Source of the DNA: an uncultured archaeon
Lineage (GTDB): Archaea > Asgardarchaeota > Lokiarchaeia > Sigyniarchaeales > SOKP01
Direction of reading: 5' to 3'
Assembly (NCBI GenBank): GCA_964508365.1
Contig: CAZDTP010000003.1
Location: 34,589-98,588 of the forward strand
Length of the DNA: 64,000 nucleotides
Part shown: positions 1 to 16,000 of the stretch, one piece after another
Numbering within the stretch: the stretch's first letter is position 1
How the letters are laid out: each line of letters begins with the position of its first letter
Position numbers and translations under genes: made by a program
Notes under the pieces: generated by a model
What the model was told of the DNA's origin: nothing
Databases searched by the model: none
Seen by the model: only the letters and a program-made list of their open reading frames with translations

Positions 1-130
1 ATTTACGAGATATTAAATAATTGCATTTAATCCTATAATTCAAATACAACTCTTTACAATAGTTTTTCAATTCATCTAAACTAATAAGTTCTTTCTTTTC
101 TTCCCTAATTTTCTTAAGAATTCGATTCAT
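1..130 (-). CDS. Partial CDS running off the left edge; possible HTH/antitoxin-like protein
   Basis: ATG at 130, then open frame MNRILKKIREEKKELISLDELKNYCKELYLNYRIKCNYLISRK to the window end; not in the ORF track; function is a guess. Confidence 0.4.
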   Translation of the reverse strand, partial: MNRILKKIREEKKELISLDELKNYCKELYLNYRIKCNYLISRK

Positions 131-233
131 AAATCATTCAAGGATATATAATTACAAATTAATATAAAACACACACACATTTAGTACAGTATCTATATAA
201 GATGCCTCAACATTTATGCCTTTTCAGTAAAGA

Positions 234-821
234 TTAGATATATTTTTTGTTACTCATATAAAAGCTAAATTGGATTGAACCATTTATATTTTTTATTGAA
301 AACTCTTTTTCTAAGAGTGGTTTTATATTCCTCAATAAGCTAGATTTAACTCGTTTATAATTCTGAGTATAATTAATGATGCATAGTATTCCGTATTGAT
401 GTAGATAATATTTATATAAAAACTTGATAGAAAGATATCTTTTCTTTTTACTTAGTCGAGAATAAATTTTGTTAGCAATAACCATATCAAACTTACCATT
501 ATAAAAGATAAAATCATGAAGTGATACCCCTTTAGAAACATCGAGAAGATAAGTAGAATAATTTTTATGTTTCTTAAAATAATTTTTAAAGGATTCTAAA
601 ATCTTTTCTGATTTATTCGCAATAAAAAATTGCGAATCAGGAGAAATCTTATGTATTTGGGGATAAATTTCTATTAAAGATTCTCCAATTATCAAAATCT
701 TATTCAATTTTCTATTTTGTTCTTGAGTTAAACCTTTAATCAGATTTGTTAATACTTGATATTCTCCAGATTCAGTTGACTTTAAGTTATTGCGATTATA
801 ATTACTAATTTCTGTTTTCAC
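234..821 (-). CDS. Hypothetical protein, possibly a degenerate class I SAM-methyltransferase fold
   Basis: beta-alpha pattern ILIIGE...YLLDV...KFDMVIAN resembles MTase motifs I, II and IV, but the glycine loop is lost; the annotated GTG lies inside a GAGGTGA SD. Confidence 0.4.
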   Translation of the reverse strand: MKTEISNYNRNNLKSTESGEYQVLTNLIKGLTQEQNRKLNKILIIGESLIEIYPQIHKISPDSQFFIANKSEKILESFKNYFKKHKNYSTYLLDVSKGVSLHDFIFYNGKFDMVIANKIYSRLSKKKRYLSIKFLYKYYLHQYGILCIINYTQNYKRVKSSLLRNIKPLLEKEFSIKNINGSIQFSFYMSNKKYI

Positions 822-850
822 CTCTTTAAAATATGTATTTTACTTAGTAT

Positions 851-1297
851 CTAATAAAAAGGGAATCTATTTCTTCTGTCTTTCTGAGAAGGTAACAATT
901 TTTGGGAAATATCTTTATCTATTAGTCCTTCTATATGGCATAAATATTCGTATTCTTCTTTCAAAACTAAAGAAATTGCAATTCCATTTTTATTCATTCG
1001 AGATGTTCTGCCTATACGATGAACATAATTTTCTGGATAGTGTGGGATATCATAGTTAAAAACATGAGATATATTTTCTATGTCTAATCCTCTAGCAGCA
1101 ACATCTGTAGCAATAAGCATATTAATCTTGTTTTTTTTGAAATTCTTTAAAACATTCTCCCTTTTATGTTGAGATAACTCTCCTGAAATTAATCCAATTT
1201 TATAAAATCTATTAAAGAAAGAATTGTTTAACATCTTGAACAACCATTTTCCTGTTTTTTTTGTATTCACAAACACAAGAGAAAATTTATTAATTCC
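851..1297 (-). pseudogene. DEAD-box RNA helicase C-terminal RecA domain only
   Basis: Motifs IV (LVFVNTK), QxxR, V (ATDVAARGLD) and VI (HRIGRTSR) present; no Walker A or DEAD domain; frame opens after the TGA at 1298-1300. Confidence 0.75.
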
Positions 1298-1569
1298 TCA
1301 ATTTTCCAATCGAAATTATCATATTGCTTATTAATTCTCTTTTTTATGTTCCCAATCTCAGAATTGAGCTTTGTTTCAATATTTACAGATATACATTTAG
1401 GATTTACAACAATAAAGTCTAATAGCTCCTTTTTATTCAACTTTTTCCATTTCTCAACATCTTCTCTATTGACATAAATGTCATACCCCGTGCGACAACA
1501 CTCTCCACACATCGCACATTTAAAATAACTGAAAGAAAAATCTTTTGCTCTTCTTTTCGGATAACTCAT
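1267..1569 (-). CDS. YkgJ-type Cys-cluster protein, apparently truncated at the C-terminus
   Basis: FKCAMCGECC N-terminal motif and GGTGA SD; the second Cys group typical of the family is absent. Confidence 0.6.
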   Translation of the reverse strand: MSYPKRRAKDFSFSYFKCAMCGECCRTGYDIYVNREDVEKWKKLNKKELLDFIVVNPKCISVNIETKLNSEIGNIKKRINKQYDNFDWKIEELINFLLCL

Positions 1570-1592
1570 CTTAACTCACCTGTCAAATTCTT

Positions 1593-3137
1593 TTATAATT
1601 CAAAAACGCTTGTAATTCCTATTTCTGAAATAGTTTCTAGAGTTGGCTTAAATTTTGATTTAAAAATTCTCCAATAATACAATTCTTCCTTAGATCTCAC
1701 TGAAAAATCTGGTGTGATTTGTTTCTCATCATTGAACTCGGTATCAGATATAATTTTATTTAACTGATCTCTTAAAATGAATTGAGACCCTGCACCATCC
1801 GAAAACTTTTGCTTTTTCCTCCAAATAAATTTTTCAGGCATCTCGTTTTCAAATGCTTTCCTTAGGATCCATTTTTTTGCTATCCCAACATTATTTTTCC
1901 TAAAAATTTTTAATTCGGAGGGTATCTTAAATGAAAATTCGGCTAATCTATGGTCGAATAAAGGGGCTCTAGCTTCGATGGAAAAGAAGTAAGGAATACG
2001 ATCAACCCGTTGTAATCCTGTCTTATGCTCTACTTCTAACAAGTTTAAAAGTTCTTGATTCAATGACTCTTTGGACTCTAAATTGCCTAAATAGGAATAT
2101 CCCCCAAAAAGTTCATCTCCCCCTTCTCCTGTAAGAAGAACGCATTCTCCTTGGTCTTCTTTAATTTTTTTTGAAATTAAAAACATAGGGACAGAACTTC
2201 TTATCAAAGCTGCATCAAATGTTTCAAGTGCAAATATTACATCCGGTAAACATTCAATCATATCCTTTAGATTTACTTCAACAACAGTATGATTTAAATT
2301 ATACAATTTAGCAAATTTTTTAGACATAAATATGTCTTTTGACCCTTCAACTCCAACGGTGTAAACATTTAAATCTTCGGTTAAATCCTTGGCAATGTAA
2401 GTAACTATTGAAGAATCTAATCCTCCGCTTAACAAAGTACATATTTTCTCCCCCTCCTGAATGTTATCTGCTACAATTAATTTCACTAATCTATTTAATT
2501 CGACCGTATAATTAAATATGATCTGACTTGTTAGTTTGTATTTCTTGATAAACTCTGGATAGTGATAAAATTTCGCAGTTTTTCCCGAAGAATATCTTGC
2601 TCTTCCAGGTTTAATAGGGCTAATTTTATTGCCTAAAGAAGTAAGAGCTTTAAGTTCAGAAGAACAGATAAAGTAATCACTATTCTCACAATAATATAAG
2701 GGTTTTCCGCCTATTGGATCCTTAAAACCAATTAATTCATCTCCATTAAAAATAACTCCACTAAAAGAACCCACTAATTGATTAAGAATTTCAATCCCAC
2801 ATTTATGATATCCCGCAATTACCCCTTCTAAGTTATTACTTTTATCTTTATCTATATCTTCATAAACATTTAAATACTTAGCATTAATTTCCATTAAATT
2901 ATAGATTTGACCATCAATAATAATTAAATCATTCTTATTTCCATCAAAACTGAAATTTAAAGGTTTATTTGTTTCAATTTCCTTTCTTTGATAAAAAATG
3001 ATTTCAATAGGAAAGTTTTCATGCTTAAATCTATGATTTGCACCCCGATGTTTCAAAGTAGAGGAGCCTTTTCTGATTTTGTCTAATAAATCTTTATTCA
3101 ATTTATTCTTCTTATAAATTGCGAATATCCCTGCCAT
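1593..3137 (-). CDS. Asparagine synthetase B-like ATP-dependent amide ligase lacking the N-terminal catalytic Cys
   Basis: SGGLDSS PP-loop, TGEGGDELFGGY, EARAPLFD, RKKQKF; likely start MAGIF at 3137 instead of MCGI. Confidence 0.85.
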   Translation of the reverse strand: MAGIFAIYKKNKLNKDLLDKIRKGSSTLKHRGANHRFKHENFPIEIIFYQRKEIETNKPLNFSFDGNKNDLIIIDGQIYNLMEINAKYLNVYEDIDKDKSNNLEGVIAGYHKCGIEILNQLVGSFSGVIFNGDELIGFKDPIGGKPLYYCENSDYFICSSELKALTSLGNKISPIKPGRARYSSGKTAKFYHYPEFIKKYKLTSQIIFNYTVELNRLVKLIVADNIQEGEKICTLLSGGLDSSIVTYIAKDLTEDLNVYTVGVEGSKDIFMSKKFAKLYNLNHTVVEVNLKDMIECLPDVIFALETFDAALIRSSVPMFLISKKIKEDQGECVLLTGEGGDELFGGYSYLGNLESKESLNQELLNLLEVEHKTGLQRVDRIPYFFSIEARAPLFDHRLAEFSFKIPSELKIFRKNNVGIAKKWILRKAFENEMPEKFIWRKKQKFSDGAGSQFILRDQLNKIISDTEFNDEKQITPDFSVRSKEELYYWRIFKSKFKPTLETISEIGITSVFEL

Positions 3138-3313
3138 TTTTAACTCATTTGATTTTAAAATTTTAATTTGAAAATCTGCCCCGATAAAACGAGTTTGATT
3201 ATAAGAATGAAAAAAATTACAATCAAACTTCAATTATAACTCTAAAAAAATAATGGGATCAGCTGATTTGGGGGATAGCTCCTTATTAAATTGTTGGATT
3301 GCATCTTTTCAAA

Positions 3314-3538
3314 TCAAAATTTTCTCACTAATATTTGTTTCGAAGCGTGAATGATATCAAGTTTAGGTAATTCTTGTATCTTCTTAATGAATTCAACTTG
3401 ATTTTTGATAGTATTCCAGTTCGAGTTGCTCAATTCAGAAATTTCACTTATTGTATGAAATTTACCATCATCTAAAACTCTAAAAATATTTTCTAATATC
3501 TGCCATTTGGTTTTCCTGTGTGAAACGCTTACGGAAAT
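3314..3538 (-). CDS. Small winged-HTH protein (74 aa), ATT start, missed by the ORF track
   Basis: Open frame ISVSVSHRKTKWQILENIFRVLDDGKFHTISEISELSNSNWNTIKNQVEFIKKIQELPKLDII...; GGTGA-N6-ATT; HTH-like TISEIS...NWNTIK pattern. Confidence 0.7.
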   Translation of the reverse strand: MSVSVSHRKTKWQILENIFRVLDDGKFHTISEISELSNSNWNTIKNQVEFIKKIQELPKLDIIHASKQILVRKF

Positions 3539-3809
3539 ATCATTTCACCAATTGATTTAATTTTTATATCTGTATTAACAGTTTTTCATTATGCAAATAA
3601 TATTTTTCATTCTATATAAAAGTATATATGTCTATTTAATTTGCATATAAATATAATTCTTTAATAAGGGTGTTTATTTAATTTATAAATAGATTCTCTC
3701 TTATTTAAATGAACATTATATTTATATTACTAAAATTGCTATAATAATATAGTATCAACTATGTATATTTATAAATTCACTCATAAAGTGGTGAATATTC
3801 CTCTTTTTA

Positions 3810-3872
3810 TATCATATTGATCGGCTTTTGAAAGTCCCTCAAGCCGTTCTTTTGAATAATTGAGATATGATA
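3810..3872 (+). promoter_or_regulatory. Candidate structured 5' leader
   Basis: Nested inverted repeats TATCATAT/ATATGATA (3810-3817 and 3865-3872) around a CGGCTT...AAGCCG hairpin, about 30 nt before the AGGAGG SD and ATG 3903. Confidence 0.3.
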
Positions 3873-3902
3873 AATTAAAAATTCCGAAAAGGAGGTATTT
3901 TT

Positions 3903-5639
3903 ATGGTAAAAATTAATAATATTGGGTTTAAAAAACAAAAAGCAAGAAAAATTTTAACAGCATGTATTGGTCAATGTGTCCATGTAGCAGGAGTCCATAA
4001 TTTTATGAAGATAGCAACCGAATTAGGGTTTGAATGTTTATTTTTAGGCCCTGCGACACCGGTTTCTGTGATTATTAATAAATTAAAAACATTTGGACCT
4101 AACATTTTAGGACTTAGTTATCGGTTAACGCCCTCTACTCTTAGACCAATACTTCAAGAATTTAAAGAAAATTATAAAGAACTGAAAGAAAAACCTCAGA
4201 AACTTTTGTTTGCTGGTACTACTGAAGTAGTTAAAGTTGCTAAAGAGAGTAATCTTTTTCAAGAATTTTTTACTGGGGGAGAATCAAAACATAAAATAAT
4301 ATCCATTTTAAGAAATGATTTATCTGCTTATAAGGAAGATTATATAATTCCTGAAGATTTAATTTCACGAATAAAATGGAAAAGTCCATTTCCCGTATTA
4401 AGAGCACATTTTGGATTACCTACTTTAAAGGATACTTTAAAGGGAATAAAGAAAATAGCGGACTCAGAGGTTTTAGATATCATCTCAATTGCTCCTGATC
4501 AAAATACTCAAGCTAATTTTTTCCATCCTAAGGATCAAGTTAAAGAATTATCTGGAGCAGGAGGGGTTCCTATCAGAGCTAAAGATGATCTTTTCAAGTT
4601 ACATAACGCAAGATTAACGGGAAACCAACCATTATTACGAATATATGCAGGCACTCGTGATATTATAGAATTAGCCGAATTATTCAGGGAAACAATTCAA
4701 AATGCTTGGGCCGCTATTCCAATTTTTTGGTTTAACCAGATGGATGGTCGTGGACCTTTGACCTTAAAAGAATCAATTAAACAACATTTAGAAGCAATAA
4801 AATGGCACGCTAAAAATAATATTCCCGTTGAGATCAATGATTCTCACCATTGGAGCTTAAGAGATGCCCCAGATTCCATTGCAGTAGCAGACATGTATCT
4901 TTGCGGGATGATCGCTAAAAAGTTAGGGGTAAAACACTTTATAGCACAATTTATGTTCAACACGCCACCTTCAAGCTCACTAAATATGGATTTAGCTAAG
5001 ATACTCGCAAAAAATGAACTACTTCATTCTTTAACAGACAAAAACTTTTCGGTGATAAAACAAGTAAGGGCTGGATTAGCTAGTTTTCCAATAGATTCAG
5101 ACAAAGCTAAGGGTCAATTGGCATTAGCAACAATGGTTCAATTAACATTAAAACCAGATATCGTTCATGTCGTAAGTTACTCGGAAGCTAATAATGCTGC
5201 TCTTCCAGAAGATGTAATTGAGAGTTGTAAAATAGTGGATCAAGTCATAAATAGAATGTATTCAAGCGAAATTGACATGATTGATAGTCAAATACTAAAA
5301 AGAAAAGAAGAATTAATTAAACAAGCAAAATGGATAATTAATTTAATACCTTCTCTAGCTAAAAACAAAAAAGAGGTTAAAAATCCATATATTAATTCTA
5401 ATGTTTTAAATCGTCTTGTGAAATATGGGATATTTGATGCGCCACATTTAAAAAATAACGATTATGCTTTAGGTAAAATTAAAACTAAAATAATTGATGG
5501 CGCATGCTACTCTTGGGATGATTTAAGGCAAAAAAGATATAATGAAATACAAAGAATTACAGATGGTGTCTCTGATCTGCCTGATATTATATTACCTAAT
5601 ATGTTAAAACAAAAAATCTCTCTTTTAGGTGATATATAA
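3903..5639 (+). CDS. Cobalamin-binding domain fused to a glutamate-mutase E-subunit-like barrel (putative AdoCbl-dependent mutase)
   Basis: N-terminal CIGQCVHVAG (DxHxxG-like), LGLSY and FAG; C-terminal RIYAGTRDIIELAE and GLASFPIDSDKAKG...VVSYSEA resemble GlmE motifs as I recall them. Confidence 0.75.
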   Translation: MVKINNIGFKKQKARKILTACIGQCVHVAGVHNFMKIATELGFECLFLGPATPVSVIINKLKTFGPNILGLSYRLTPSTLRPILQEFKENYKELKEKPQKLLFAGTTEVVKVAKESNLFQEFFTGGESKHKIISILRNDLSAYKEDYIIPEDLISRIKWKSPFPVLRAHFGLPTLKDTLKGIKKIADSEVLDIISIAPDQNTQANFFHPKDQVKELSGAGGVPIRAKDDLFKLHNARLTGNQPLLRIYAGTRDIIELAELFRETIQNAWAAIPIFWFNQMDGRGPLTLKESIKQHLEAIKWHAKNNIPVEINDSHHWSLRDAPDSIAVADMYLCGMIAKKLGVKHFIAQFMFNTPPSSSLNMDLAKILAKNELLHSLTDKNFSVIKQVRAGLASFPIDSDKAKGQLALATMVQLTLKPDIVHVVSYSEANNAALPEDVIESCKIVDQVINRMYSSEIDMIDSQILKRKEELIKQAKWIINLIPSLAKNKKEVKNPYINSNVLNRLVKYGIFDAPHLKNNDYALGKIKTKIIDGACYSWDDLRQKRYNEIQRITDGVSDLPDIILPNMLKQKISLLGDI

Positions 5640-6749
5640 ATGAATTTTTGTGTAATAGGAGCAGGAAATGGTGGTCGTGCATTCGCGGCATACCTATCTT
5701 CCAAAGGATATCAAGTGAATCTTTATAATCGTTCTTTTTCAAGAATTATTGATATAAAGAAGAAAGGGGGAGTTAAGGCATCTGGAGAAATAAAAGGTAA
5801 ATTCCCATGTAATTTAGTTACACAGGATTTAGAAAAAGCAGTAAAAAATGTTGATGTTATATTAATAGTTGTCCCCGCTTCAGCACATAAAGGCATTGCT
5901 GAAAAAATTATACGGTATCTCTCTCATGATCAAATAATATTATTAAATCCTGGAAGAACTTTTGGTGCTGTTGAATTTCGAAAAATTATTGATAAGAAAG
6001 GTAGACCCTTTCCCATTTTTATTGCTGAAATTCAAACGCTACTTTTTACTTCAAGACAACTAAAAAAAAATAGAGTAGAAGTCCTTAAAATTAAAAATCT
6101 TGTCGATTTTTCTGCTTTTCCTGAAAAAGATACTTCTTTTGTGTATGATACATTAAAAGGAGTATTTCCTCAATTAAATCCTGTAGATGATTATCTTGAA
6201 ATGACATTGAATAATATTGGAATGTTAATGCATCCAATCATTTCACTACTAAATGCTGGTGCAATGGAATATGGAAAAGCTTTTAAATTTTATGCAGAGG
6301 GTGCAACTCCTCGCACTTGTAAGATTCTTGAATTTATTCAGAATGAAATTAATAAAATCTTTAATGTTTTAGGGTTAAAAGAATTTAGATTTTGTAATTG
6401 GGCAAATAAATCATATGGGGTTCGAAAGAAATGCATCCATGATGCAATTCATAATATAGGAGCATATGAAAATATAGTAGCACCAAAGAACTTAATTACA
6501 AGATATTTCACTGAAGATGTACCTACAGGTTTAGTACCAATTTCGTCTATAGCTAAGTTCTTGGGCATTGAAACACCCATAATTGATTCTGTGATTAATC
6601 TTTCTTCAATATTATGTGGAATAGATTTTAGAAGTGAAGGAAGAACCTTAAAAGGATTGGATCTCGAAAAATTTATTCAAAATAGAATCAAAATTGAGGA
6701 ATTTATAAATTTAGGAACAAAACAGAAAATTCCTACCAAGAGTATCTAG
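5640..6749 (+). CDS. NAD(P)-dependent opine (octopine/nopaline) dehydrogenase family
   Basis: VIGAGNGG Rossmann motif, LNPGRTFG, LNNIGMLMHP, RYFTEDVPTGL; abuts the upstream stop codon. Confidence 0.9.
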   Translation: MNFCVIGAGNGGRAFAAYLSSKGYQVNLYNRSFSRIIDIKKKGGVKASGEIKGKFPCNLVTQDLEKAVKNVDVILIVVPASAHKGIAEKIIRYLSHDQIILLNPGRTFGAVEFRKIIDKKGRPFPIFIAEIQTLLFTSRQLKKNRVEVLKIKNLVDFSAFPEKDTSFVYDTLKGVFPQLNPVDDYLEMTLNNIGMLMHPIISLLNAGAMEYGKAFKFYAEGATPRTCKILEFIQNEINKIFNVLGLKEFRFCNWANKSYGVRKKCIHDAIHNIGAYENIVAPKNLITRYFTEDVPTGLVPISSIAKFLGIETPIIDSVINLSSILCGIDFRSEGRTLKGLDLEKFIQNRIKIEEFINLGTKQKIPTKSI

Positions 6750-6802
6750 ACTCTCTGAGTGATAGGGATATGATCTTAGAATTTAATATAAATAAAAAAA
6801 CA

Positions 6803-7798
6803 TTATTTAATATAACCATTTTCTCTGAACCAGTTAATTGCCTTCTCAATAGTTTTTTTGATGGGTGTCTGTTTTAACCCCAATTCATTTACAGCCTTAG
6901 AACAATCAAAATGTTCCCCCATCTTTCCTAAGCGTACCTGAGACACCGAAACTATAGGGGGATTTTTCGTAATACGGGCTCCTACCTGAAATAAGTATCC
7001 TAAAAATAGTGCTACTTTATAGGGAATCTTCCGCTTTGGTGGTTTGACTCCTGCTATTTCAGCAATTAAATTAAAAAAATCTCCAACAAACAAATTTTCA
7101 TTGCCGAAGAGATACCTCTCACCAATTCTTCCTTTCTGAGCTGCCAGAATTTGTCCGCGTGCCACATCTTCAACATCAATAACATTAATAGCTCCTTCAA
7201 TATACCCTGGCATGGCTCCATTAGCAATATCGACAAGTAGTGCCCCAGAAGGTGTGGGTTTACAATCTCTCACCCCAATGACTAAAGTTGGATTTACTAT
7301 TACTAAAGGAAGTCCTTTTTCGCAAATTTTTTTTGCTTCAATCTCAGCAAGGTACTTTGAGATTGCATAATGGTCCCCTGCCTCCCATCCATTGAATTCA
7401 GCATCCTCTTTCACAAAGTTTCCAGCTCCATGAGATCCTATCGTATTAGAAGTGCTAGTATAAACAACTTTTTTTAATCCTTGAGAAAGTGCTTCCTCAA
7501 GAAGAGTTCTGGTCCCCTCGACATTTATATCATAAAATAATTTTTTATTAGGTGCCCAATGGGCAAATAAAGCAGCAACATGATAAAGTGTATCGCATCC
7601 CTTTAGTGCTATTATTACGGATTCCTTATCCCGAATATCACAATAGACCTTCTCCACATCTAGATCATCAATATTTCGAGTATCACTATCCTTTCTAATA
7701 GTAACCCTTACATCTGTGCCGTCTTTAATCAGCTCTCTTACAACATTTGAACCCATAAAACCATTTGCGCCCGTAACTAATACTGTTATTTTAATCAC
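6803..7798 (-). CDS. NAD-dependent epimerase/dehydratase (HpnA/dihydroflavonol-reductase-like extended SDR)
   Basis: VTGANGFMG, YTST, YAISK (YxxxK), VNPTLVIG; true start may be ATA at 7789. Confidence 0.9.
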   Translation of the reverse strand: MIKITVLVTGANGFMGSNVVRELIKDGTDVRVTIRKDSDTRNIDDLDVEKVYCDIRDKESVIIALKGCDTLYHVAALFAHWAPNKKLFYDINVEGTRTLLEEALSQGLKKVVYTSTSNTIGSHGAGNFVKEDAEFNGWEAGDHYAISKYLAEIEAKKICEKGLPLVIVNPTLVIGVRDCKPTPSGALLVDIANGAMPGYIEGAINVIDVEDVARGQILAAQKGRIGERYLFGNENLFVGDFFNLIAEIAGVKPPKRKIPYKVALFLGYLFQVGARITKNPPIVSVSQVRLGKMGEHFDCSKAVNELGLKQTPIKKTIEKAINWFRENGYIK

Positions 7799-8176
7799 CT
7801 TGTAAAATAATATTAATCTAAAAAAATCTTTCTACTATATATATTTTATAGACTAAGAATTCAATATCTTGTACTAAGACTAAAACTCCACTTTCAGCAA
7901 AATCTATTCATATAGAGAAGTCTTTGCTCTTAAAGCCGTCTAAAGACAATTACAAATAACAATGTAAGATAATTTTTTTCATAATTATTTGTGTGTAAAA
8001 TTAATACAAATTTAGATTCTTTTTTTTTCCCTTTTAAGAAATTAAGTTAAAAATATAACAATATATAATTAATGATAAATTAAATTATTAAAACTTAGAG
8101 TTTTGGTTTCACATTTCTTTATATCAAAATCAATAATCGTTGTTTTGGGAGAAATTTTTTGACTAATTAACTAAAA

Positions 8177-8192
8177 CTAAAAGGTTTAAATA
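8177..8192 (+). promoter_or_regulatory. Putative BRE/TATA promoter of feoAB
   Basis: Purine-rich run followed by TTTAAATA (8185-8192), about 50 nt before the feoA ATG. Confidence 0.4.
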
Positions 8193-8243
8193 AGTAGAAT
8201 CTTTATTTTCAATTGGGAAACAAAAATTAAAATTAAAAAAAAA

Positions 8244-8555
8244 ATGCCATTCCAACCACGTCACCATAGACCTCCTATACATCGTATAGCAAGTCAAAAA
8301 ATAGGAACTCGACTCACAAAATGTCTAACTGAGTGCGAAAGCGGAGAGGAAGTTATCGTATTAAGGGTAAATGCTGGATATGGGGCAAAGACACGTCTTG
8401 CTAATTTAGGAATTGTTCCTGGAGTAAAAGTTAAAAAAACGAAAAATGCTCCTTTTCGAGGACCAATAGAAATAAAAGTTAAAGGCTCATCCTTAGTCCT
8501 TGGTAGAGGTTTAGCATCTAAAATATTAGTAAGTTGTAACAATTCTTATACTTAA
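8244..8555 (+). CDS. feoA: Ferrous iron transport protein A
   Basis: RLANLGIVPG, APFRGPIEIKVKGSSLVLGRG; directly upstream of feoB. Confidence 0.92.
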   Translation: MPFQPRHHRPPIHRIASQKIGTRLTKCLTECESGEEVIVLRVNAGYGAKTRLANLGIVPGVKVKKTKNAPFRGPIEIKVKGSSLVLGRGLASKILVSCNNSYT

Positions 8556-8640
8556 TAATCGCGTTATAAGATTAAATTGGATTAATTTTATAAAAATTTC
8601 TAAGAGGAATTCATTAAAAAAAGATGGGTTGTTTTAATAA

Positions 8641-10779
8641 ATGAGTGATCACAGGCCAGATATTAAACTAAAGAACAAAGGGATGTATAAGGATACAATT
8701 AATATCGCTTTAGCAGGAAATCCAAATGTAGGAAAATCAGTTATTTTTAACCAACTTACTGGGTTAAGCCAAACCATAGGGAACTGGCCCGGTAAAACAG
8801 TTGAAAGAATGGAAGGCTATCTTAATTTTTTAGGATATCGTTTTAATATCGTTGATTTACCGGGTATTTATTCTCTTTCTACCTACTCCTTAGAGGAAAT
8901 AGTAAGTAGAGAATATATTGTTTCTGATGAGGTTGATGTTATTATAAATGTAGTTGATGCCACAAATTTAGAACGAAATTTATTTTTTACGTTTCAGTTA
9001 TTAGAATTAGAAGTTCCATTAATTATTGCAATTAACCAAATGGATATTTTAAGAAGTAGGAATATAGAAATTGATTTTAAAGCTCTGGAGAATATTTTTA
9101 AATTGCCTGTACTCCCTGTAGTTGCTGTACATGGTATAGGTGTCCATCAACTGTTAGAAGAAGCTATTGAAATGGTCGTTTTTCAGCATCCCCATACTCA
9201 TTTCAACGAAAAAACCCGAGATGAGTACGACCATCATTCTCATAATTATTATCGAACAGAACATATTCACGACAAAGTAAAAGTAAATAGTAAAGGGAAA
9301 AATAACTTTAAATTTCCTGATTTATCTAAAGTGCTCACCTTTGGGAAAGAAGTTGAGTCGTGTATTGGCAAATTAATCATGGAGATTAATAATAATCAAC
9401 TATCTTCTGCTCTAATTAAATACCCACCAAGGTTTTTAGCAATAAAGTTATTGGAAAATGATGAAGAAATTAAAAGTAGTATTACAAATAAAGAAATTAT
9501 AAAAATTGCCGATGAGTTTAGAAATCAATTAGAAGTTATTCATGGAGAAGATGTTCATACAATAATGTCGTCAGAGATTTACAATAAAATTCATGACATA
9601 AGCGATAAAGTTTTAATAATAAAACCACATAAAGGAAAAAAGAAAGTCAGTCTCGCTGATGTAATCGATCATCTTACTACTCATTCAATCTTAGGTTATT
9701 TTATTTTAGTTGCTGTACTATTTGGTATATATATCTTTACTTTTTCTTTTGGAAATTTTTTTAGTGGATTAATAGATGAGCTATATACGCTATGGAGTGA
9801 ATTTATTTACAATTCTTTTGGAGAAGAAAATTTAATAGTTAAGATATTTTGGGATGGCGGGTTGGGAGGATTTCTAGGCGGTATAGGCGGCGTTTTAGTA
9901 TATGTCATACCTTTCTTTTTTGTAATTGAAATTCTACAAGACTCGGGTTATTTACCAAGAGCAGCGTTTTTAATGGATAAGATAATGCACTCACTCGGAG
10001 TCCATGGAAAAACCATTATTCCAATGATTTTAGGATTTGGGTGTAATGTTCCAGCATGTGCTGGGTGCAGAATAATGGAAACAGAACGAGAAAAAAAAAT
10101 ATCTGTCGCATTAACATCGCTAGTACCTTGTGCTGCCGTTATGACAGTTGTGTTAGGATTGGTAGGGAGATATTTGGGATTTTTTTGGGTAATGATTTTG
10201 TTTTTAATAAACTTTGGTGTTATTTTTTTAATAGGTCGAATTCTAAATAAAGTAATGCCTGGTGAATGCACAGAACTTATAATGGAAATGCATGAATACA
10301 GGATGCCAAATTCTAAAGTTATTCTTAAACAAACCTGGCTTAGAACTAAAGAATTTATTTACAAGGCTTTACCAATAATAATCGTTTTTGGTATTCTTTT
10401 AGAAATATTATTAATATTCAACGCTTTAGAGCCAATAAATGTTGTTTTAAGTCCTGTCACAGTATTATGGTTAGGGCTACCTGCTATAACTGGCGTGTTC
10501 TTAATATATGGAATTTTAAGGAAAGAGTTAACCTTAGTTCTCTTATCGATTTTAGCTAATTCTTTAAATGTTACCCTTTTAGAATTACTTACTCCAATTC
10601 AGATGATTGTATTTTGTCTGGTTAGCATGCTTTATATTCCGTGTTTTGCAACAATCATAATTATTGCAAAACAAACGAACTGGAAATATGCTGCTCAAAT
10701 CTCATTTCTAGAGATAGGATTAGCCCTATTTATAGGTGGAATTATCAATCTTGGATTTCTAATATTAACAAGCTTTTAA
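8641..10779 (+). CDS. feoB: Ferrous iron transport protein B
   Basis: GNPNVGKS, GNWPGKTVE, DLPGIYSL, LQDSGYLPRAAFLMD, GFGCNVPA, LYIPCFAT; His-rich insert. Confidence 0.96.
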   Translation: MSDHRPDIKLKNKGMYKDTINIALAGNPNVGKSVIFNQLTGLSQTIGNWPGKTVERMEGYLNFLGYRFNIVDLPGIYSLSTYSLEEIVSREYIVSDEVDVIINVVDATNLERNLFFTFQLLELEVPLIIAINQMDILRSRNIEIDFKALENIFKLPVLPVVAVHGIGVHQLLEEAIEMVVFQHPHTHFNEKTRDEYDHHSHNYYRTEHIHDKVKVNSKGKNNFKFPDLSKVLTFGKEVESCIGKLIMEINNNQLSSALIKYPPRFLAIKLLENDEEIKSSITNKEIIKIADEFRNQLEVIHGEDVHTIMSSEIYNKIHDISDKVLIIKPHKGKKKVSLADVIDHLTTHSILGYFILVAVLFGIYIFTFSFGNFFSGLIDELYTLWSEFIYNSFGEENLIVKIFWDGGLGGFLGGIGGVLVYVIPFFFVIEILQDSGYLPRAAFLMDKIMHSLGVHGKTIIPMILGFGCNVPACAGCRIMETEREKKISVALTSLVPCAAVMTVVLGLVGRYLGFFWVMILFLINFGVIFLIGRILNKVMPGECTELIMEMHEYRMPNSKVILKQTWLRTKEFIYKALPIIIVFGILLEILLIFNALEPINVVLSPVTVLWLGLPAITGVFLIYGILRKELTLVLLSILANSLNVTLLELLTPIQMIVFCLVSMLYIPCFATIIIIAKQTNWKYAAQISFLEIGLALFIGGIINLGFLILTSF

Positions 10780-11229
10780 ATCGATTATTACTACATTCCT
10801 AATAATCTTTAATAAAATTGGATATGTCTATATTCTCTCTTATAAATTTAAAACGAAGTATTTCCTTTAGCACAAAATATTAATTCTTGAAATTAAAGAA
10901 AAAGTTATTATTATTAATCATATAATATTCAAAAATGCCAATTAAGAGAGGAAAACATGTTAAATCAAGCATACCATTTATCTCATTAGATTATATTTGT
11001 ATCCCATTTTTTAGATTTAAGGATTATCTTATTAATACCAAGATTTTTAATCTCATTAAATCTTGTATTGGAAGAAAAAAAATAGAGCAAAATTTTTTAA
11101 AAGAGTTCGTTTTTATATAATTTCAATAACAAATTTTTAACTTAATGAAACAAAATAAAATTTGAATGAAATTTTAAGTTAACTGATTAAGAATTAGATG
11201 AGATATAACAAAACAATTGACTTATTAAG

Positions 11230-11243
11230 AGGGATTAATCCCT
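11230..11243. repeat. Perfect 14-bp palindrome, possible operator
   Basis: AGGGATTAATCCCT, about 110 nt upstream of ATG 11355. Confidence 0.35.
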
Positions 11244-11354
11244 GTGTTAATCTTTTTGATAACCTAATTAAATCATTAACAGCATCATTCAAGTTAAAAT
11301 ATCTTTATTTTCTTCAGAATTTATCTAAATTAAAATATCAAGTATAAAATAATA

Positions 11355-13289
11355 ATGCCAAATCAAACAGAAAGCAGAGATAAAAAAAAAAGAACTTCTG
11401 AAAGTAAAGAGAAACACACACTAAAATGTTTTGGACCTGTTGGTAACCTAGAAGAATATGTTAAAAAGGACTGGTGGAAAAGGATATTTAACGCATTTTA
11501 TTTAAAAACAGATGGTGATGTAGTAGAAGACCAGAATATTACTGAATTCGAAGTGAATTACTTTTCTAAAATCATGAATTTTCAACCTGAACATCAGATT
11601 CTTGATCTCTGTTGTGGTCAAGGAAGACACTCCATTGAATTAGCTAATAAAGGTTTTAAAAACATATATGGTTTAGATCGTTCAAGATATTTAATTCAAA
11701 AAGCTAAATCAAATTCAAAAAAAAGGGGACTTTTATGTAAATTTCGAGAAGGTGACGCTAGAAACCTACCATACAATCCAGATACATTTGATTTTATCTT
11801 GCTTTTAGGCAATAGTTTTGGATATTTTGAATCAATTAACGATGATATTCAAGTACTAAGAGAAGTATTCCGCGTATTAAAACCACGGGGAAAAATATTA
11901 ATAGATCTAACTGATGGAGAATACATTAGAAACAATTTTCAAACACGTTCATGGGAATGGATTGATAAGGAACTTTTTGTATGTCGAGAACGATCTTTAT
12001 CATTAGATCAGCAAAAATTGATTTCACGTGAAGTGATAACCCATGTTAATAAAGGAGTATTAGTGGATCAGTTTTACTCAGAAAGATTATATTCTCAAGA
12101 GGGGATTTCAGAGTTTTTAAAGAAGGTAGGGTTTAATGATGTAATTGTTCATGGTTCAATTACTCCTGAATCTCAAAGGGATCAAGATTTAGGCATGATG
12201 GAAAAAAGAATTATAGTTAGCGGAATAGTTGAAAAAGAATGGACACAGATTAAAACGAAAGAAAAAACAGCTGCAAGAAATATTGTCGTAATTTTTGGAG
12301 ACCCTAAAAAACCAGATATACTTAAACCCTTACATAAATTTGATGATGACGATATCTTTACAATAAATCAATTAAAAGCTACACTAAAGGAGCTAGATGA
12401 ATATAAAATCTCATATTTAGATAATCACACCACTTTTATTCAAGATTTGCAAAATGTACAAGGAAAAATTGATTTTGTTTTTAATTTATGTGATGAGGGC
12501 TATTACAATGAAGCTAGAAAGGAATTACATATACCTGCCTTGCTAGAAATTCTAAAAATTCCATATACCGGATCTGGACCTCAATGTCTCGCCTTCTGTT
12601 ATGATAAATCTTTAGTAAGAGGTATAGCAAAAGAATTAGAAATTCCCGTTCCTGAAGCAGTTTTCATTAAACCTGGAGAAAAAATTATAGATTTACCACT
12701 ATACTTCCCTGCAATTGTAAAACCTAATTTTGGGGACTCTAGTTTCGGAATTACTCAGAAAAGCGTAGTGGAAAATGGAGAGGAATTATTAAGTGCAATT
12801 GCCGATATTCGTGAAAAATTTGGCTATGATAAACCTATTTTAGTGGAACAGTTCCTTCCTGACAAGGATCTCACCGTTGGAATTATCGGAAATTTACCTG
12901 AAAATTATATTATCCTCCCAATTATAGAAGAAGATTATTCAAGTTTACCTCCAGGATTACCAAAGATATGTGGTTATGAAGCAAAATGGTTAAAAGATTC
13001 TCCTTATTGGAATATTAAATCTATTCCTGCAAATCTTCCACAAAACACAATTGAAATTATTGAAAGTTGTTCTCTAAAATTATTTGAACGGTTAGAGTGT
13101 CAAGACTATGCGCGATTTGATTGGCGCTTGGATACCAAAGGAAATCCTAAACTTTTAGAAGTAAATCCTAACCCCGGTTGGTGTTGGGATGGTCATCTAG
13201 CAAAAATGTGTAATTTTGCAAATATCACATATAAGGAAATGTTAAATAAAATCTTAGAAGCAGCAGCAAGAAGGATTGGATCAAAATAA
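11355..13289 (+). CDS. Class I SAM methyltransferase fused to a D-Ala-D-Ala ligase-like ATP-grasp domain
   Basis: ILDLCCGQGRH, GLDRS, GDAR; VKPNFGDSSFGI, LVEQFL, ARFDWR, LLEVNPNPG. Confidence 0.9.
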   Translation: MPNQTESRDKKKRTSESKEKHTLKCFGPVGNLEEYVKKDWWKRIFNAFYLKTDGDVVEDQNITEFEVNYFSKIMNFQPEHQILDLCCGQGRHSIELANKGFKNIYGLDRSRYLIQKAKSNSKKRGLLCKFREGDARNLPYNPDTFDFILLLGNSFGYFESINDDIQVLREVFRVLKPRGKILIDLTDGEYIRNNFQTRSWEWIDKELFVCRERSLSLDQQKLISREVITHVNKGVLVDQFYSERLYSQEGISEFLKKVGFNDVIVHGSITPESQRDQDLGMMEKRIIVSGIVEKEWTQIKTKEKTAARNIVVIFGDPKKPDILKPLHKFDDDDIFTINQLKATLKELDEYKISYLDNHTTFIQDLQNVQGKIDFVFNLCDEGYYNEARKELHIPALLEILKIPYTGSGPQCLAFCYDKSLVRGIAKELEIPVPEAVFIKPGEKIIDLPLYFPAIVKPNFGDSSFGITQKSVVENGEELLSAIADIREKFGYDKPILVEQFLPDKDLTVGIIGNLPENYIILPIIEEDYSSLPPGLPKICGYEAKWLKDSPYWNIKSIPANLPQNTIEIIESCSLKLFERLECQDYARFDWRLDTKGNPKLLEVNPNPGWCWDGHLAKMCNFANITYKEMLNKILEAAARRIGSK

Positions 13290-13667
13290 TTATAATCATG
13301 GTTATAGATAATATTATGAAAAAAAATGAAGAGAGTTTTCCTACATCAAACATTTTCTTGTAAGCTTAGTATTAAAAAACGGATTTAAAGGAATTAGATC
13401 AAGAAGTCAAATAAAAGGAGTATAAGATGTTAAACTTAAAGGAAATATGGAATTTAGCCCAAACTCGAGTCTTTATATTCTTAAAAAAAAAAAACTTTTT
13501 TTACTTTGGTTATTTGTATTAAATTCCAAGCTAAACCTCCTAAATCACTCAAATCACTCAAATTCTTTTAGATCTCTAAAAACTATGGATTAAAGTATAT
13601 AATACATTTAAATTATCTTGAAAATTCTTATTTATAGTTTAAAGTTCCTTAATTTAAGAACATAAAT

Positions 13668-14684
13668 ATGACCACTTTAAGGATAACAACCCCTTGTAGA
13701 ATCCATCTTTCTTTAATCGATGAAAACGGATACACTGGCCGAGTTGATGGTGGAATCGGTCTAATGTTAGACCGTCCTAACGTAATTATTGAAACTACGA
13801 ATCACGCGGAAGAATTTAAAATTGAAGCTCATAAATATTATCGCGAATCAATTGAAGTGATTAATGAGCAAGCTTCAAAAATTTTTAAAGCGTTCAATAT
13901 AAACAATAAGAACTTCCATTTTAATCTTAAAAGGTATTTTCCAAGCCATGTAGGTTTAGGTTCAAAAACACAATTATCGTTGGCTATCGCTGTCGCGATA
14001 ACTACATTGAAAAACATTACTCATCACTCTTTAAAGGATCTTACTCGACTTGTTAATAGAGGTGGAACTTCAGGAATAGGATGGAGGGGTTTCGAACAAG
14101 GTGGCTTTATAGTTGATGCCGGACACGAGTTTGGGAAAGGTAAAGAAAAAGAAACTTTTTTGCCTTCTTCAGCATCAAAAGAAGTTAATCCTGCACTTAC
14201 AATTTTAAGATATCCTATCCCAGAACATTGGAGATTTGTATTAGTTATACCTAATGTAAAGAAAGGAGCTTACGGCGATGAAGAAATAAGTATTTTCCAA
14301 AGTCATGCTCCAATCCCAAAAGTAGAAGTTAATGAAGTTTCACATCAAATTTTAATGAAAATTGTGCCAGGAATTATTAAAAAAGATTTAGAATGTTTTG
14401 GGGAAGGTTTAAAAAGAATACAGAGCATAGGATTTAAAAAAATCGAAATCTCTCTACAACATGAAATCGTAAAAAAAACACTCAATCTTTTTGAAGATAA
14501 TGGAGTTAAAGCTTTTGGAATGTCTTCTTTTGGCCCTAGTGTGATTGGGATTGTAGAATCTGATGAGGATGCTAACAAACTTTTAAAAATTGTTCAGATA
14601 TGTCTTAATAGTAATGGTGGGCACATCTACTTATGCAAACCTAATAATTATGGAGCAAAAATTGAATTTTTTGAGGAGAATTAA
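13668..14684 (+). CDS. mptG: Beta-ribofuranosylaminobenzene 5'-phosphate synthase (GHMP family)
   Basis: TPCRIHLSLID, GRVDGGIG, PSHVGLGSKTQL, RGGTSGIG, GGFIVDAGH, GMSSFGP. Confidence 0.9.
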   Translation: MTTLRITTPCRIHLSLIDENGYTGRVDGGIGLMLDRPNVIIETTNHAEEFKIEAHKYYRESIEVINEQASKIFKAFNINNKNFHFNLKRYFPSHVGLGSKTQLSLAIAVAITTLKNITHHSLKDLTRLVNRGGTSGIGWRGFEQGGFIVDAGHEFGKGKEKETFLPSSASKEVNPALTILRYPIPEHWRFVLVIPNVKKGAYGDEEISIFQSHAPIPKVEVNEVSHQILMKIVPGIIKKDLECFGEGLKRIQSIGFKKIEISLQHEIVKKTLNLFEDNGVKAFGMSSFGPSVIGIVESDEDANKLLKIVQICLNSNGGHIYLCKPNNYGAKIEFFEEN

Positions 14685-15079
14685 TGTCAAACGGAAAAGA
14701 AAACGCCTATTTTTCTTTTGATATAAACGATAGAGAAAGGGCATGTTTTGAAGTAGGTATAAAATTAGGAGCTCTTTATCATATTTTGTGTGGGATGCCA
14801 ATATCATCAAATTCTAATGTTATTGAGTCAATTGAAAAGGGTATTGAAGCATCGATTTCATGCCAGCCTTATGTCATATCGGTCAAGATTAATGTAAATC
14901 GAGATGAAATTCAAGGTGATAAATCTACCGAGTTTGACTACGATGAAATTACTGGAAAGTTAATAACTGCAACTGTTGTTCTTGAGTTTAACTCGGTTGA
15001 AATTACCGCAAAAGTAGAGTGGATTCAAGAACTTAATTACCCTTTGATGTTTATTGAGAAAATAAGAAATAAAAGCTAA
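14684..15079 (+). CDS. mptD: Archaeal dihydroneopterin aldolase
   Basis: ERACFEVGIKLGALYH...G.P.S and LNYPLMFI signature; coupled to mptG. Confidence 0.85.
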   Translation: MSNGKENAYFSFDINDRERACFEVGIKLGALYHILCGMPISSNSNVIESIEKGIEASISCQPYVISVKINVNRDEIQGDKSTEFDYDEITGKLITATVVLEFNSVEITAKVEWIQELNYPLMFIEKIRNKS

Positions 15080-15825
15080 GATTCTAATCTATTAATGTAG
15101 TTATAGACATGCTCAATCGCCTTTATGGCACTCTCATTTTTTCCAAATCTCCGTATTTCACTTACATTTTCTTCAATTTTATGCTTAATTGTTCTGATTA
15201 AGGTTTTGTCTTTTTTTTTTGTAGCGATATTTAATTTAGTGGCGAGTACGATAGTTTCCAATGTAAGATTTTCCGCTCTATTAAACAATTTAAAAGATTC
15301 TTTAAATTTTTTGTAGGAAATAACAGATAAATTTATTTCCATTAACTCTACCTGTCCGAAATTATCAGTCTTTACGGTTTGATTTTTATTCGTTGCTACG
15401 CATGAAATAATAGCCCACGCTTGATTTAAATATGGCAAATGAATAGTGTTATCTCGTATAATTCCTTTAAAAATTGCCTTATACTTGTTTTTCACATCAA
15501 AGGGAAAATAATTATAATATTGTTCCGATGATGTTTCGATACTATTAGAAAAATCAATAGCTTTTAAAGATGTTATCGCATAAAGAAAGATGTCATCGAC
15601 GAAATTTAAAGTAATTAATTTAGTACTATCGAGATTTTTATATGTAGTAGTATCTGGGAAAGGCCAAATTTTTATAGTATTATTTTCCAACAATCTTATA
15701 CCCATAGCGGCAGTGTTTGGAATTATCTTATTATTCTTTATAGAATAAGTCGTAGCTAAAACTTCATATAAATAATTCATTTTCAGACCTATAGATGTAA
15801 GGTCTACTTGAGAATTGGATGACAT
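15076..15825 (-). CDS. DUF447 family protein (FMN-binding split barrel)
   Basis: YEVLATT...NTAAMGI, TTTYKNL, FNRAENLTLE. Confidence 0.75.
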   Translation of the reverse strand: MSSNSQVDLTSIGLKMNYLYEVLATTYSIKNNKIIPNTAAMGIRLLENNTIKIWPFPDTTTYKNLDSTKLITLNFVDDIFLYAITSLKAIDFSNSIETSSEQYYNYFPFDVKNKYKAIFKGIIRDNTIHLPYLNQAWAIISCVATNKNQTVKTDNFGQVELMEINLSVISYKKFKESFKLFNRAENLTLETIVLATKLNIATKKKDKTLIRTIKHKIEENVSEIRRFGKNESAIKAIEHVYNYINRLES

Positions 15826-16000
15826 TACCTTTAATAATACAAATTCTTGGTGGTATAAGTAAGAATATATCCAAGTTCTTTAATATTTTATAAAAATATA
15901 ATCATATCTATACCTCGAACAAGAAGCATTAAAAATTAATAAAAATAAAAAGAATTGTTGAACTTTAATTATAAGCAAAACAACTAGAACTTGATAATCA

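Follow-up and report, generated by a model that had tools for sequence, protein, structure and literature searches.

A B12 mutase-like enzyme, its opine dehydrogenase partner and a Cys-less AsnB homologue in an Asgard archaeon: a candidate biosynthetic cluster

The mutase-dehydrogenase pair and its described relatives

A new family of B12-dependent proteins was predicted in 11 bacteria by Zhang, Rodionov, Gelfand and Gladyshev, with a distant N-terminal B12-binding domain, genes 'always adjacent' to a PF02317 octopine/nopaline dehydrogenase and a D-Ala-D-Ala ligase or an asparagine synthase nearby; its barrel fold was left unassigned and no function was proposed (2009, BMC Genomics 10:78, PMC2667541). 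Here we describe an archaeal member, encoded in a stretch of 64,000 nucleotides from an uncultured archaeon of the Lokiarchaeia (contig CAZDTP010000003.1 of assembly GCA_964508365.1, positions 34,589 to 98,588, forward strand), referred to below as the window. It carries a B12 mutase-like gene abutting an opine dehydrogenase gene, and on the opposite strand a Cys-less homologue of the asparagine synthetase AsnB and a small winged-helix gene. The window mutase is 43-49% identical to bacterial members of the family, for example those of Thermoanaerobacter and Caldanaerobacter. We propose, with a probability of about one half, that the locus is a divergently transcribed biosynthetic cluster for a small acidic amino-acid derivative, by the steps set out in the last section.

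A preliminary description of this DNA, made from its sequence alone, took the combination of three enzymes to be new, which was an overstatement, as the trio had been flagged in 2009 (PMC2667541). The present analysis adds to that work the Asgard members, a Cys-less AsnB clade, a regulator gene with an ATT start, a leader and a methyltransferase-like partner. Literature searches retrieved no paper assigning a reaction to the family; those pairing opine dehydrogenase with a mutase or a riboswitch returned nothing relevant, and only the 2009 paper was reached, through nopaline dehydrogenase and B12. The locus is a member of a B12 mutase variant, as yet uncharacterised, whose partner genes recur.

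The source assembly (4.07 Mb) is 100% complete, the G+C content of the window is about 30%, and the closest relatives of its proteins were found in Asgard (Promethearchaeota/Lokiarchaeia-type) metagenome-assembled genomes (MAGs). The Asgard survey covered a panel of 399 genomes, 42 of them from the genus of the window; because related genomes are not independent, its results are given as counts, with no statistical test. The loci compared for the pair numbered 109 distinct in all, with 64 from Asgard archaea and 44 from bacteria.

The characterised enzyme closest to the mutase-like protein is glutamate mutase (GlmS/GlmE, also MutS/MutE; EC 5.4.99.1; structures 1cb7 and 6h9e), with which it shares a Rossmann-type B12 domain carrying a His ligand and, judging from the specificity signature of the partner dehydrogenase, a likely acidic amino acid substrate. 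An N-terminal cobalamin-binding Rossmann domain (C25-x-H27-x-x-G30) is fused to a GlmE-like triosephosphate isomerase (TIM) barrel. In Pfam the protein matched Met_asp_mut_E (PF06368) at 3e-8 (33 bits against a cut-off of 26.6), its match to the B12-binding family PF02310 being weak and sub-threshold, and solved structures in the Protein Data Bank (PDB) were matched by sequence in the B12 domain only. An AlphaFold2 (AF2) model with a mean predicted local distance difference test score (pLDDT) of 87.6 gave as its top Foldseek matches the E chains of glutamate mutase (1cb7_B and 6h9e_B; 5e-17; template-modelling score on the target 0.64-0.65), followed by ornithine and lysine aminomutases and by methylmalonyl-CoA and other acyl-CoA mutases, which places the modelled barrel with the TIM-barrel fold of the glutamate mutase E subunit.

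Among 17 diverse homologues the motifs CxHxxG, SYRLT and GG were near-invariant, and the invariant residues of the barrel included R167, R225, E310, W317 and H422. The DxHxxG...SxL...GG motif of glutamate mutase is thereby kept in its His, its SxL (as SYRLT) and its GG, with the Asp replaced by a near-invariant Cys (CVHVAG in the window). Unlike glutamate mutase, which is built of two subunits, the window enzyme is a single fused chain with the S domain at its N-terminus, and it is paired with an opine dehydrogenase instead of methylaspartase; GlmL/MutL was not seen in the window. No canonical GlmE was found in the genome itself, which encodes a CobA-type adenosyltransferase. The modelled fold and the motifs point to an adenosylcobalamin (AdoCbl)-dependent carbon-skeleton or amino mutase-like enzyme, closest to glutamate mutase yet apparently not glutamate mutase itself. 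Identities among the best 120 matches ranged from 64 to 97%, and the gene is an accessory one, present in 159 of the 399 Asgard genomes and in 23 of the 42 of the window's genus. In a library of 1.84 billion representatives the family comprised 640 clusters at E <= 1e-3.

The second enzyme of the pair scored 136.4 bits against PF02317 (cut-off 30), matched NAD_Gly3P_dh_N at 9e-12, carries the Rossmann motif GxGxxG and aligned over its full length with N-(1-D-carboxyethyl)-L-norvaline dehydrogenase (CENDH, 1BG6) at 9e-78. The His/Asp catalytic dyad described for opine dehydrogenases (Telek et al. 2024, PMC10787698) is present, the His of 'LMHP' and the Asp of 'TEDV' aligning with the 1BG6 residues; the full-length homology and the dyad are common to CENDH, the metagenomic opine dehydrogenases (mODHs) of that study and the window enzyme. 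Arg106 aligns with A111 of 1BG6 and a Gly with N198, the positions at which Arg and Gly shift the preference of opine dehydrogenases to Asp/Glu (Telek et al. 2024, PMC10787698), as in the Asp/Glu-preferring mODHs of the mODH-582 type. By these residues it is a genuine opine dehydrogenase of, we would predict, the acidic-amino-acid type. It differs from CENDH and the mODHs in that its gene abuts that of a B12 mutase.

The stop codon of the mutase gene (5639) directly precedes the ATG of the dehydrogenase gene (5640), and this junction, together with a Cys-less AsnB homologue and a small winged-helix gene lying divergent from the pair, bears out what had been read from the letters; the extent of the gene set had been drawn too narrowly, as two further genes, orf195 and a CxxCxxCC gene, join the AsnB operon in relatives. 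Adjacency of mutase and dehydrogenase was found in 60 of the 64 Asgard and 39 of the 44 bacterial loci, most exceptions falling at contig ends. Two orders occur, mutase before dehydrogenase as in the window, and dehydrogenase before mutase as in other Asgard families and most bacteria. The pair was found in Asgard archaea, Bacillota, Aminicenantes, Ignavibacteriota, Chloroflexota, Poribacteria and one Methanomicrobia MAG.

The surroundings of the pair vary. In loci of family f1 (L001, L006, L012-L018 and others) the block 3' of it consists of a major facilitator superfamily (MFS) transporter, a class-I glutamine amidotransferase/peptidase C26 protein, a GGACT protein and a GCS2-like ligase, along with two HGD-D (2-hydroxyglutaryl-CoA dehydratase) genes and a BcrAD/BadFG activator, a glutamate-centred neighbourhood from which the window departs in having no such block. 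The place of the MFS transporter is taken in the window by an HpnA-like short-chain dehydrogenase/reductase (SDR) gene and FeoA/FeoB genes, so that local synteny is broken in this genome. In six of the 44 bacterial loci a 4HBT hotdog thioesterase gene lies 3' of the mutase, with a divergent Ddl-type ATP-grasp ligase (L101, L093, L103 and L106; Tepidanaerobacter-type).

The Cys-less AsnB homologue

The reading frame of the AsnB homologue (1593..3233, minus strand) opens with TTG, and its relatives all start at an internal Met, which corresponds to 3137 here and gives a protein beginning MAGIF. In it Cys1 is replaced by Ala, so that the N-terminal Cys is missing as in beta-lactam synthetase (1JGT) and CarA (1Q15). 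The glutamine site is also altered, with VNGEIYN changed to IDGQIYN and SDCE to NNLE; the protein thus lacks the Cys1 and glutamine-binding features of AsnB (EC 6.3.5.4). In contrast, it shares with E. coli AsnB (1CT9) the two-domain layout, the PP-loop SGGLDS and the catalytic Glu/Asp/Arg/Lys motifs, the synthetase motifs being kept as LLSGGLDSS, TGEGGDE, EARAPLFD and KQKFSDG. It matched PF00733 at 6e-54 and stayed below the equivalog cut-offs of NF006949 (332 against 499) and TIGR01536 (220 against 267). Among solved structures it matched 1CT9 at 8e-48, 1Q15 at 9e-14 and 1JGT at 1.5e-10; on these E-values its kinship is closer to AsnB than to beta-lactam synthetase or CarA.

Homologues above about 36% identity were all without Cys1, with Ala, Thr, Ser or Pro in its stead, and Asn74, Glu76 and Asp98 are changed throughout the Asgard clade, which formed a group of 28 rows in a quick tree with a branch support of 100 by the Shimodaira-Hasegawa-like approximate likelihood ratio test (SH-aLRT). 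The window protein appears from its motifs to have a dead glutaminase site and an intact synthetase site; the Asgard clade to which it belongs is a separate one, whose origin lies in AsnB and not in beta-lactam synthetase or CarA.

The preliminary description had tied this gene to the pair by proximity only, and would have abandoned the three-gene set had the AsnB homologue never occurred with the pair. The link holds, and it extends beyond proximity to co-occurrence, to several gene orders and to recruitment in other lineages. The Cys-less clade was present in 19 of the 399 Asgard genomes, 17 of which carry the mutase; in the genus of the window all seven carriers of the Cys-less AsnB were mutase-positive. 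In nine of the 11 genomes with both genes on one contig they lay no more than 5 kb apart, in at least five gene orders. The AsnB gene was divergent from the pair with only the regulator gene (and orf195) intervening in G000, G167 and G166, and with Usp/ArsR-type genes or Metallophos and SUI1 genes intervening in G231, G266 and G185. It stood immediately upstream on the same strand in G130, and immediately after the dehydrogenase gene in G165 and G138, the latter a single-contig genome of 6.0 Mb. In G266 it lies between two copies of the pair; there (locus L003, G266:C23) two mutase-dehydrogenase pairs (3136-6005 and 13865-16707; 65-68% identical to that of the window) flank the orf195 and AsnB genes.

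AsnB genes of other lineages were found 39-127 bp behind the mutase gene in five bacterial loci (Thermoanaerobacter thermocopriae, Caldanaerobacter subterraneus, and Clostridia, Ignavibacteriaceae and Oscillospiraceae MAGs), and an AsnB homologue of another lineage follows the dehydrogenase in Asgard family f9. On the quick tree these were scattered among Cys-bearing AsnBs, and because the pair-linked AsnBs fall in several places of the tree, ligases of this type look to have been recruited to the pair repeatedly and independently. Of the pair-linked AsnBs of other lineages, three retain MCG(I/L), whereas Ala or Gly is found in three. A glutamine-dependent amidotransferase with Cys1 in the same operon slot favours amidation as the reaction and weakens the case for lactam closure. 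A Ddl-type ATP-grasp ligase replaces AsnB in 11 of the 44 bacterial loci.

Two further candidates for partnership were set aside. Bacterial Ser-type Cys-less AsnB homologues (P0230 and P0211) were not adjacent to the pair, and the methyltransferase/ATP-grasp fusion encoded 4.6 kb 3' of the dehydrogenase gene in the window was not counted as a member of the cluster, as it has only about 28% identity to the pair-linked Ddl-type ligases.

The winged-helix gene, the leader and neighbouring genes

The suspected small winged-helix gene between the two divergent arms is real. Its frame is open from stop to stop (3314..3544, minus strand) and offers no ATG, GTG or TTG before an internal TTG at 3433. 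An ATT, the probable start (3538-3536), is preceded by a Shine-Dalgarno (SD)-like GGTGA at 3549-3545, with an in-frame TGA at 3547-3545 and the stop codon at 3316-3314. Beside the mutase the frame was 54-78% identical in 14 distinct loci, always divergent from that gene, and in 12 of the 14 the sequence [A/G]GTGA is followed by a spacer of 5-6 nt and ATT, while four relatives (P0391-P0394) have ATG or GTG exactly at the ATT codon of the window. Translation from ATT is made probable by this conservation. The gene is uncalled in the public annotations of L001 and L002 and truncated elsewhere to 54-63 aa, and all 23 of its database clusters are labelled 'hypothetical'. Those regulator loci that could be placed belong, by GTDB kinship, to the family of the window, and the Hod-, Hermod-, Odin- and Thorarchaeota labels that some of the MAGs carry at NCBI are not evidence of wide phylogenetic spread.

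The protein had no Pfam match. Its AF2 model (pLDDT 89.6) consists of three helices (residues 11-24, 30-36 and 41-56) and a beta-hairpin wing (strands 60-64 and 69-73), the topology of a winged helix-turn-helix (wHTH) domain. The top 50 Foldseek rows were nearly all winged-helix domains at E >= 0.1, no single match being significant, and the protein language-model neighbours were of the HTH_11, ArsR, MarR and IclR types. On this model we predict that the 74-aa protein is a winged-helix regulator. Its gene heads the orf195-AsnB operon where those genes occur.

The divergent intergenic region spans 360 nt and is conserved in blocks. In the leader of the mutase gene, positions 3820-3828 and 3840-3848 form an inverted repeat, P1; it is followed by a conserved box rich in invariant positions, TTTTGAATAATTGAGA (3850-3865), and by an anti-SD UUCC (3882-3885) which pairs with the SD sequence GGAGG (3891-3895). 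From the alignment of the leaders RNAalifold derived no consensus structure, and both helices, P1 and SD, were accordingly tested as named structures. P1 was 86% paired, with compensatory changes in five of its nine pairs and several G-U intermediates; none of 500 shuffles reached the observed pairing, and slid controls gave 29-47%. Folds of single leader sequences were weak (-5 to -9 kcal/mol), with insignificant z-scores.

A covariance model of the leader (R1) had matches in 16 distinct loci, in no other position than upstream of the mutase. One copy was found in the window's own genome, with no second convincing one, and the leader was accordingly rejected as a regulon motif. Three near-complete genomes keep it without the wHTH gene; this makes it less likely that the wHTH protein has P1 for its operator, and the leader is not simply that operator. 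As little as 12-15 nt upstream of P1 there is a TATA-like block, and P1 may act either as RNA or as an operator in the DNA. Further upstream, a near-palindrome, CTATAATAATATAG, lies at 3741-3754 on the plus strand, about 165 nt before the mutase start; its position is kept in most wHTH-bearing loci, and it is a candidate operator or promoter element.

In bacteria a c-di-AMP riboswitch (RF00379) was found directly upstream of the operon in 16 of the 21 loci tested, and in 16 of the 18 Bacillota loci; the leader occupies its place in this archaeal lineage. In one Bacillota MAG the element directly upstream of the dehydrogenase-mutase operon is a fluoride riboswitch (RF01734, 50.3 bits; L126:8682-8743), in place of the c-di-AMP riboswitch of other Bacillota.

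The product of orf195 had no Pfam match itself. Its orthologues gave weak matches to Methyltransf_31/12 and its language-model neighbours were class I S-adenosylmethionine (SAM) methyltransferases (0.96, with 177-181 shared features), which indicate a class-I-methyltransferase-like fold; its motif I is atypical (ILIIG), and SAM binding is uncertain. The order wHTH, orf195, AsnB was found in L005 and L010, and wHTH followed by orf195 without AsnB in L011 and L061. A bona fide methyltransferase gene lies 3' of AsnB in G165; no homology of orf195 to it, or to the reading frame downstream of AsnB in G138, was detectable by BLAST.

The CxxCxxCC protein encoded after the AsnB gene matched PF03692 at 5.5e-4, just below the cut-off, and an orthologue (49% identity) lies 3' of AsnB in L004, the window copy being shorter. 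The gene is joined to a DEAD-box helicase frame that comprises only the 3' half and begins inside the end of the CxxCxxCC gene (junction at about 1267-1276). In sequence the junction looks like the scar of a deletion or rearrangement, and such a scar would explain the displaced position of orf195 in the window. A similar helicase fragment adjoins the wHTH gene in L017. The coordinates of all features are collected in Table 1.

Table 1. Positions in the window of the cluster genes, the leader and the neighbouring genes, with the basis of each assignment
Feature	Position	Strand	Length and basis
B12 mutase-like gene	3903..5639	+	578 aa; Pfam, AF2/Foldseek
Opine dehydrogenase gene	5640..6749	+	369 aa; PF02317 1e-39
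AsnB-like ATP-dependent amidoligase gene (predicted)	1593..3137	-	514 aa; PF00733 6e-54
Predicted winged-helix regulator gene, uncalled	3314..3538	-	74 aa; translation, conservation, AF2
Conserved leader 5' of the mutase gene	3820..3902	+	intergenic alignment, covariance model
CxxCxxCC (PF03692-like) gene after the AsnB gene	1267..1569	-	probably truncated at its 3' end
orf195, class-I-methyltransferase-like	234..821	-	weak Pfam matches of orthologues, language-model neighbours
DEAD-box helicase, C-terminal half	851-1276	-	Helicase_C 5e-26; motifs ATDVAARGLD, HRIGRT
HpnA-like SDR	6803-7798	-	TIGR03466 363 bits, just below the 367.65 cut-off
FeoA/FeoB iron-transport genes	8244-8555, 8641-10779	+	3' of the pair
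Fusion of class I SAM methyltransferase (69-206) and D-Ala-D-Ala-ligase-type ATP-grasp (449-635)	11355-13289	+	644 aa

A proposed pathway and its alternatives

In the pathway that we propose, the fused GlmS/GlmE-like AdoCbl mutase, with its cofactor bound His-on through the CxHxxG motif, would rearrange the carbon skeleton of an acidic amino acid, the conversion of glutamate to 3-methylaspartate serving as the model reaction. By the dehydrogenase the rearranged amino acid and a 2-oxo acid, for example pyruvate, would be reductively condensed to an N-(1-carboxyalkyl) product, and this condensation would pull the unfavourable equilibrium of the mutase forward. The AsnB-like enzyme would act as an optional tailoring enzyme that adenylates a side-chain carboxylate and then amidates it, in the Cys-less clade with free ammonia as the source of nitrogen, and the methyltransferase-like and CxxCxxCC proteins may provide further tailoring. 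Control of the divergon would fall to the ATT-started 74-aa winged-helix protein and to the leader with its SD-sequestering hairpin. It had been suggested earlier that the three enzymes rearrange, condense and then cyclise or amidate a metabolite; the functional set stands and amidation is now the favoured last step, whereas lactam closure is disfavoured by the Cys1 kept in three loci and by the kinship to AsnB.

The likeliest role of the product is that of a compatible solute or potassium counter-ion, because of the c-di-AMP riboswitches in bacteria, the acid-type dehydrogenase and the charge-masking ligases. Osmolyte and potassium functions are the main setting in which riboswitches of this class are known. 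Among the roles first considered, that of an osmolyte gains support from these bacterial riboswitches, while that of a metallophore received none here. A similar logic is known from the methanogen route to N-epsilon-acetyl-beta-lysine (AblA/AblB) and from the synthesis of N-acetylglutaminylglutamine amide (NAGGN), where a common amino acid is isomerised to a poorly metabolised form and charges are masked by an amide; in NAGGN synthesis an AsnB-type amidotransferase and a ligase tailor a solute. The likeness to the present cluster is functional only, as the mutases of the methanogen osmolyte pathways are radical-SAM enzymes and not B12 enzymes, and there is no opine step in those pathways. More specifically, the product may be a compatible solute of an undescribed class, a branched acidic amino acid, N-(1-carboxyalkyl)-substituted, amidated and possibly methylated, made by the first B12 carbon-skeleton mutase dedicated to small-solute biosynthesis and governed by a new leader RNA and an ATT-start regulator; we regard this fuller version as doubtful, at roughly one chance in four.

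Several observations weigh against the biosynthetic reading. The mutase scored 21.6 bits against the TIGR01503 equivalog (cut-off 390.1), and GlmE was not recovered from the PDB by the 17-member sequence profile of the family, so that the fold comparison was required for the link to GlmE; given this weak similarity in sequence, the reaction may differ from that of glutamate mutase. Most pair-bearing genomes lack the AsnB homologue, which is therefore not essential to the core chemistry; part of its proximity to the pair within family f1 could be inherited synteny; and it is the sole gene of its family in this complete genome, where a housekeeping role is possible. An MFS transporter lies 3' of the pair in several Asgard loci and would suit uptake and catabolism too. 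Finally, the riboswitch evidence is bacterial: no Rfam family, RF00379 included, was found in positions 1-14000 of the window at E <= 1.

A first alternative gathers the points on AsnB into a reading in which the homologue is a housekeeping, ammonia-dependent asparagine synthetase placed where it is by inherited gene order, the mutase-dehydrogenase pair alone being a functional unit. It would fit the lone Asn_synthase-family gene, a genome with AsnRS (asparaginyl-tRNA synthetase) and without AsnA, the conserved acyl-adenylate and Asp-site motifs and the many pair loci that have no AsnB. However, gatB is present, so that Asn-tRNA can be made without free Asn, and most relatives manage without the gene. 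The clade is restricted to 19 Asgard genomes, 17 of them mutase carriers, against 159 of 399 overall (and 7 of 7 against 23 of 42 in the genus). Its adjacency to the pair has also survived rearrangement into at least five gene orders, the gene lies in one operon with the regulator gene of the pair, and bacteria look to have recruited AsnBs independently, and we hold the housekeeping role to be unlikely.

About equally improbable is a catabolic cluster, in which the cell would take up an opine-like or branched acidic amino acid, the dehydrogenase would cleave it oxidatively and the mutase would convert it to glutamate for fermentation. The reactions of opine dehydrogenases and of glutamate mutase are both reversible, the MFS transporter could serve import, and the neighbours of the pair in family f1 include 2-hydroxyglutaryl-CoA dehydratase and gamma-glutamyl enzymes. 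Against this, the recurrent partners of the pair are ATP-consuming ligases (AsnB and the Ddl-type ATP-grasp enzyme), c-di-AMP riboswitches mostly govern osmolyte and potassium functions, and neither a methylaspartase nor an opine permease or ABC system recurred in the neighbourhoods.

Closure of a lactam as by beta-lactam synthetase or CarA is very unlikely. In this reading the enzyme would adenylate an N-substituted (methyl)aspartate at its beta-carboxylate, and attack by the opine's secondary amine would give an azetidinone. The dead glutaminase site across the Asgard clade and the geometry of an N-carboxyalkyl aspartate, which suits a four-membered ring, speak for it, yet Cys1 in the pair-linked AsnBs of three bacterial loci implies ammonia transfer, the window protein stands far nearer to AsnB than to beta-lactam synthetase or CarA and keeps the AsnB-type GEGxDE, and E. 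coli AsnB without Cys1 still uses ammonia.

The known adenosylcobalamin isomerases are few, and new radical chemistry has come to light with each addition to them. The present family has been without an assignment since its prediction in 2009; it occurs in hundreds of anaerobes, and its cultured carriers include Thermoanaerobacter, Caldanaerobacter, Tepidanaerobacter and the Asgard isolate Promethearchaeum syntrophicum. The strict coupling of the mutase to an opine dehydrogenase, the repeated recruitment of amide-forming ligases and the c-di-AMP control in bacteria make the question of its function directly testable, and the biosynthetic reading predicts that glutamate or aspartate, with pyruvate, NAD(P)H, AdoCbl, ATP and ammonium, would yield a new solute. 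For archaeal biology, the locus offers a rare conserved non-canonical start codon, the probable ATT of a predicted regulator missed by gene callers, and a candidate structured leader in Asgard archaea.

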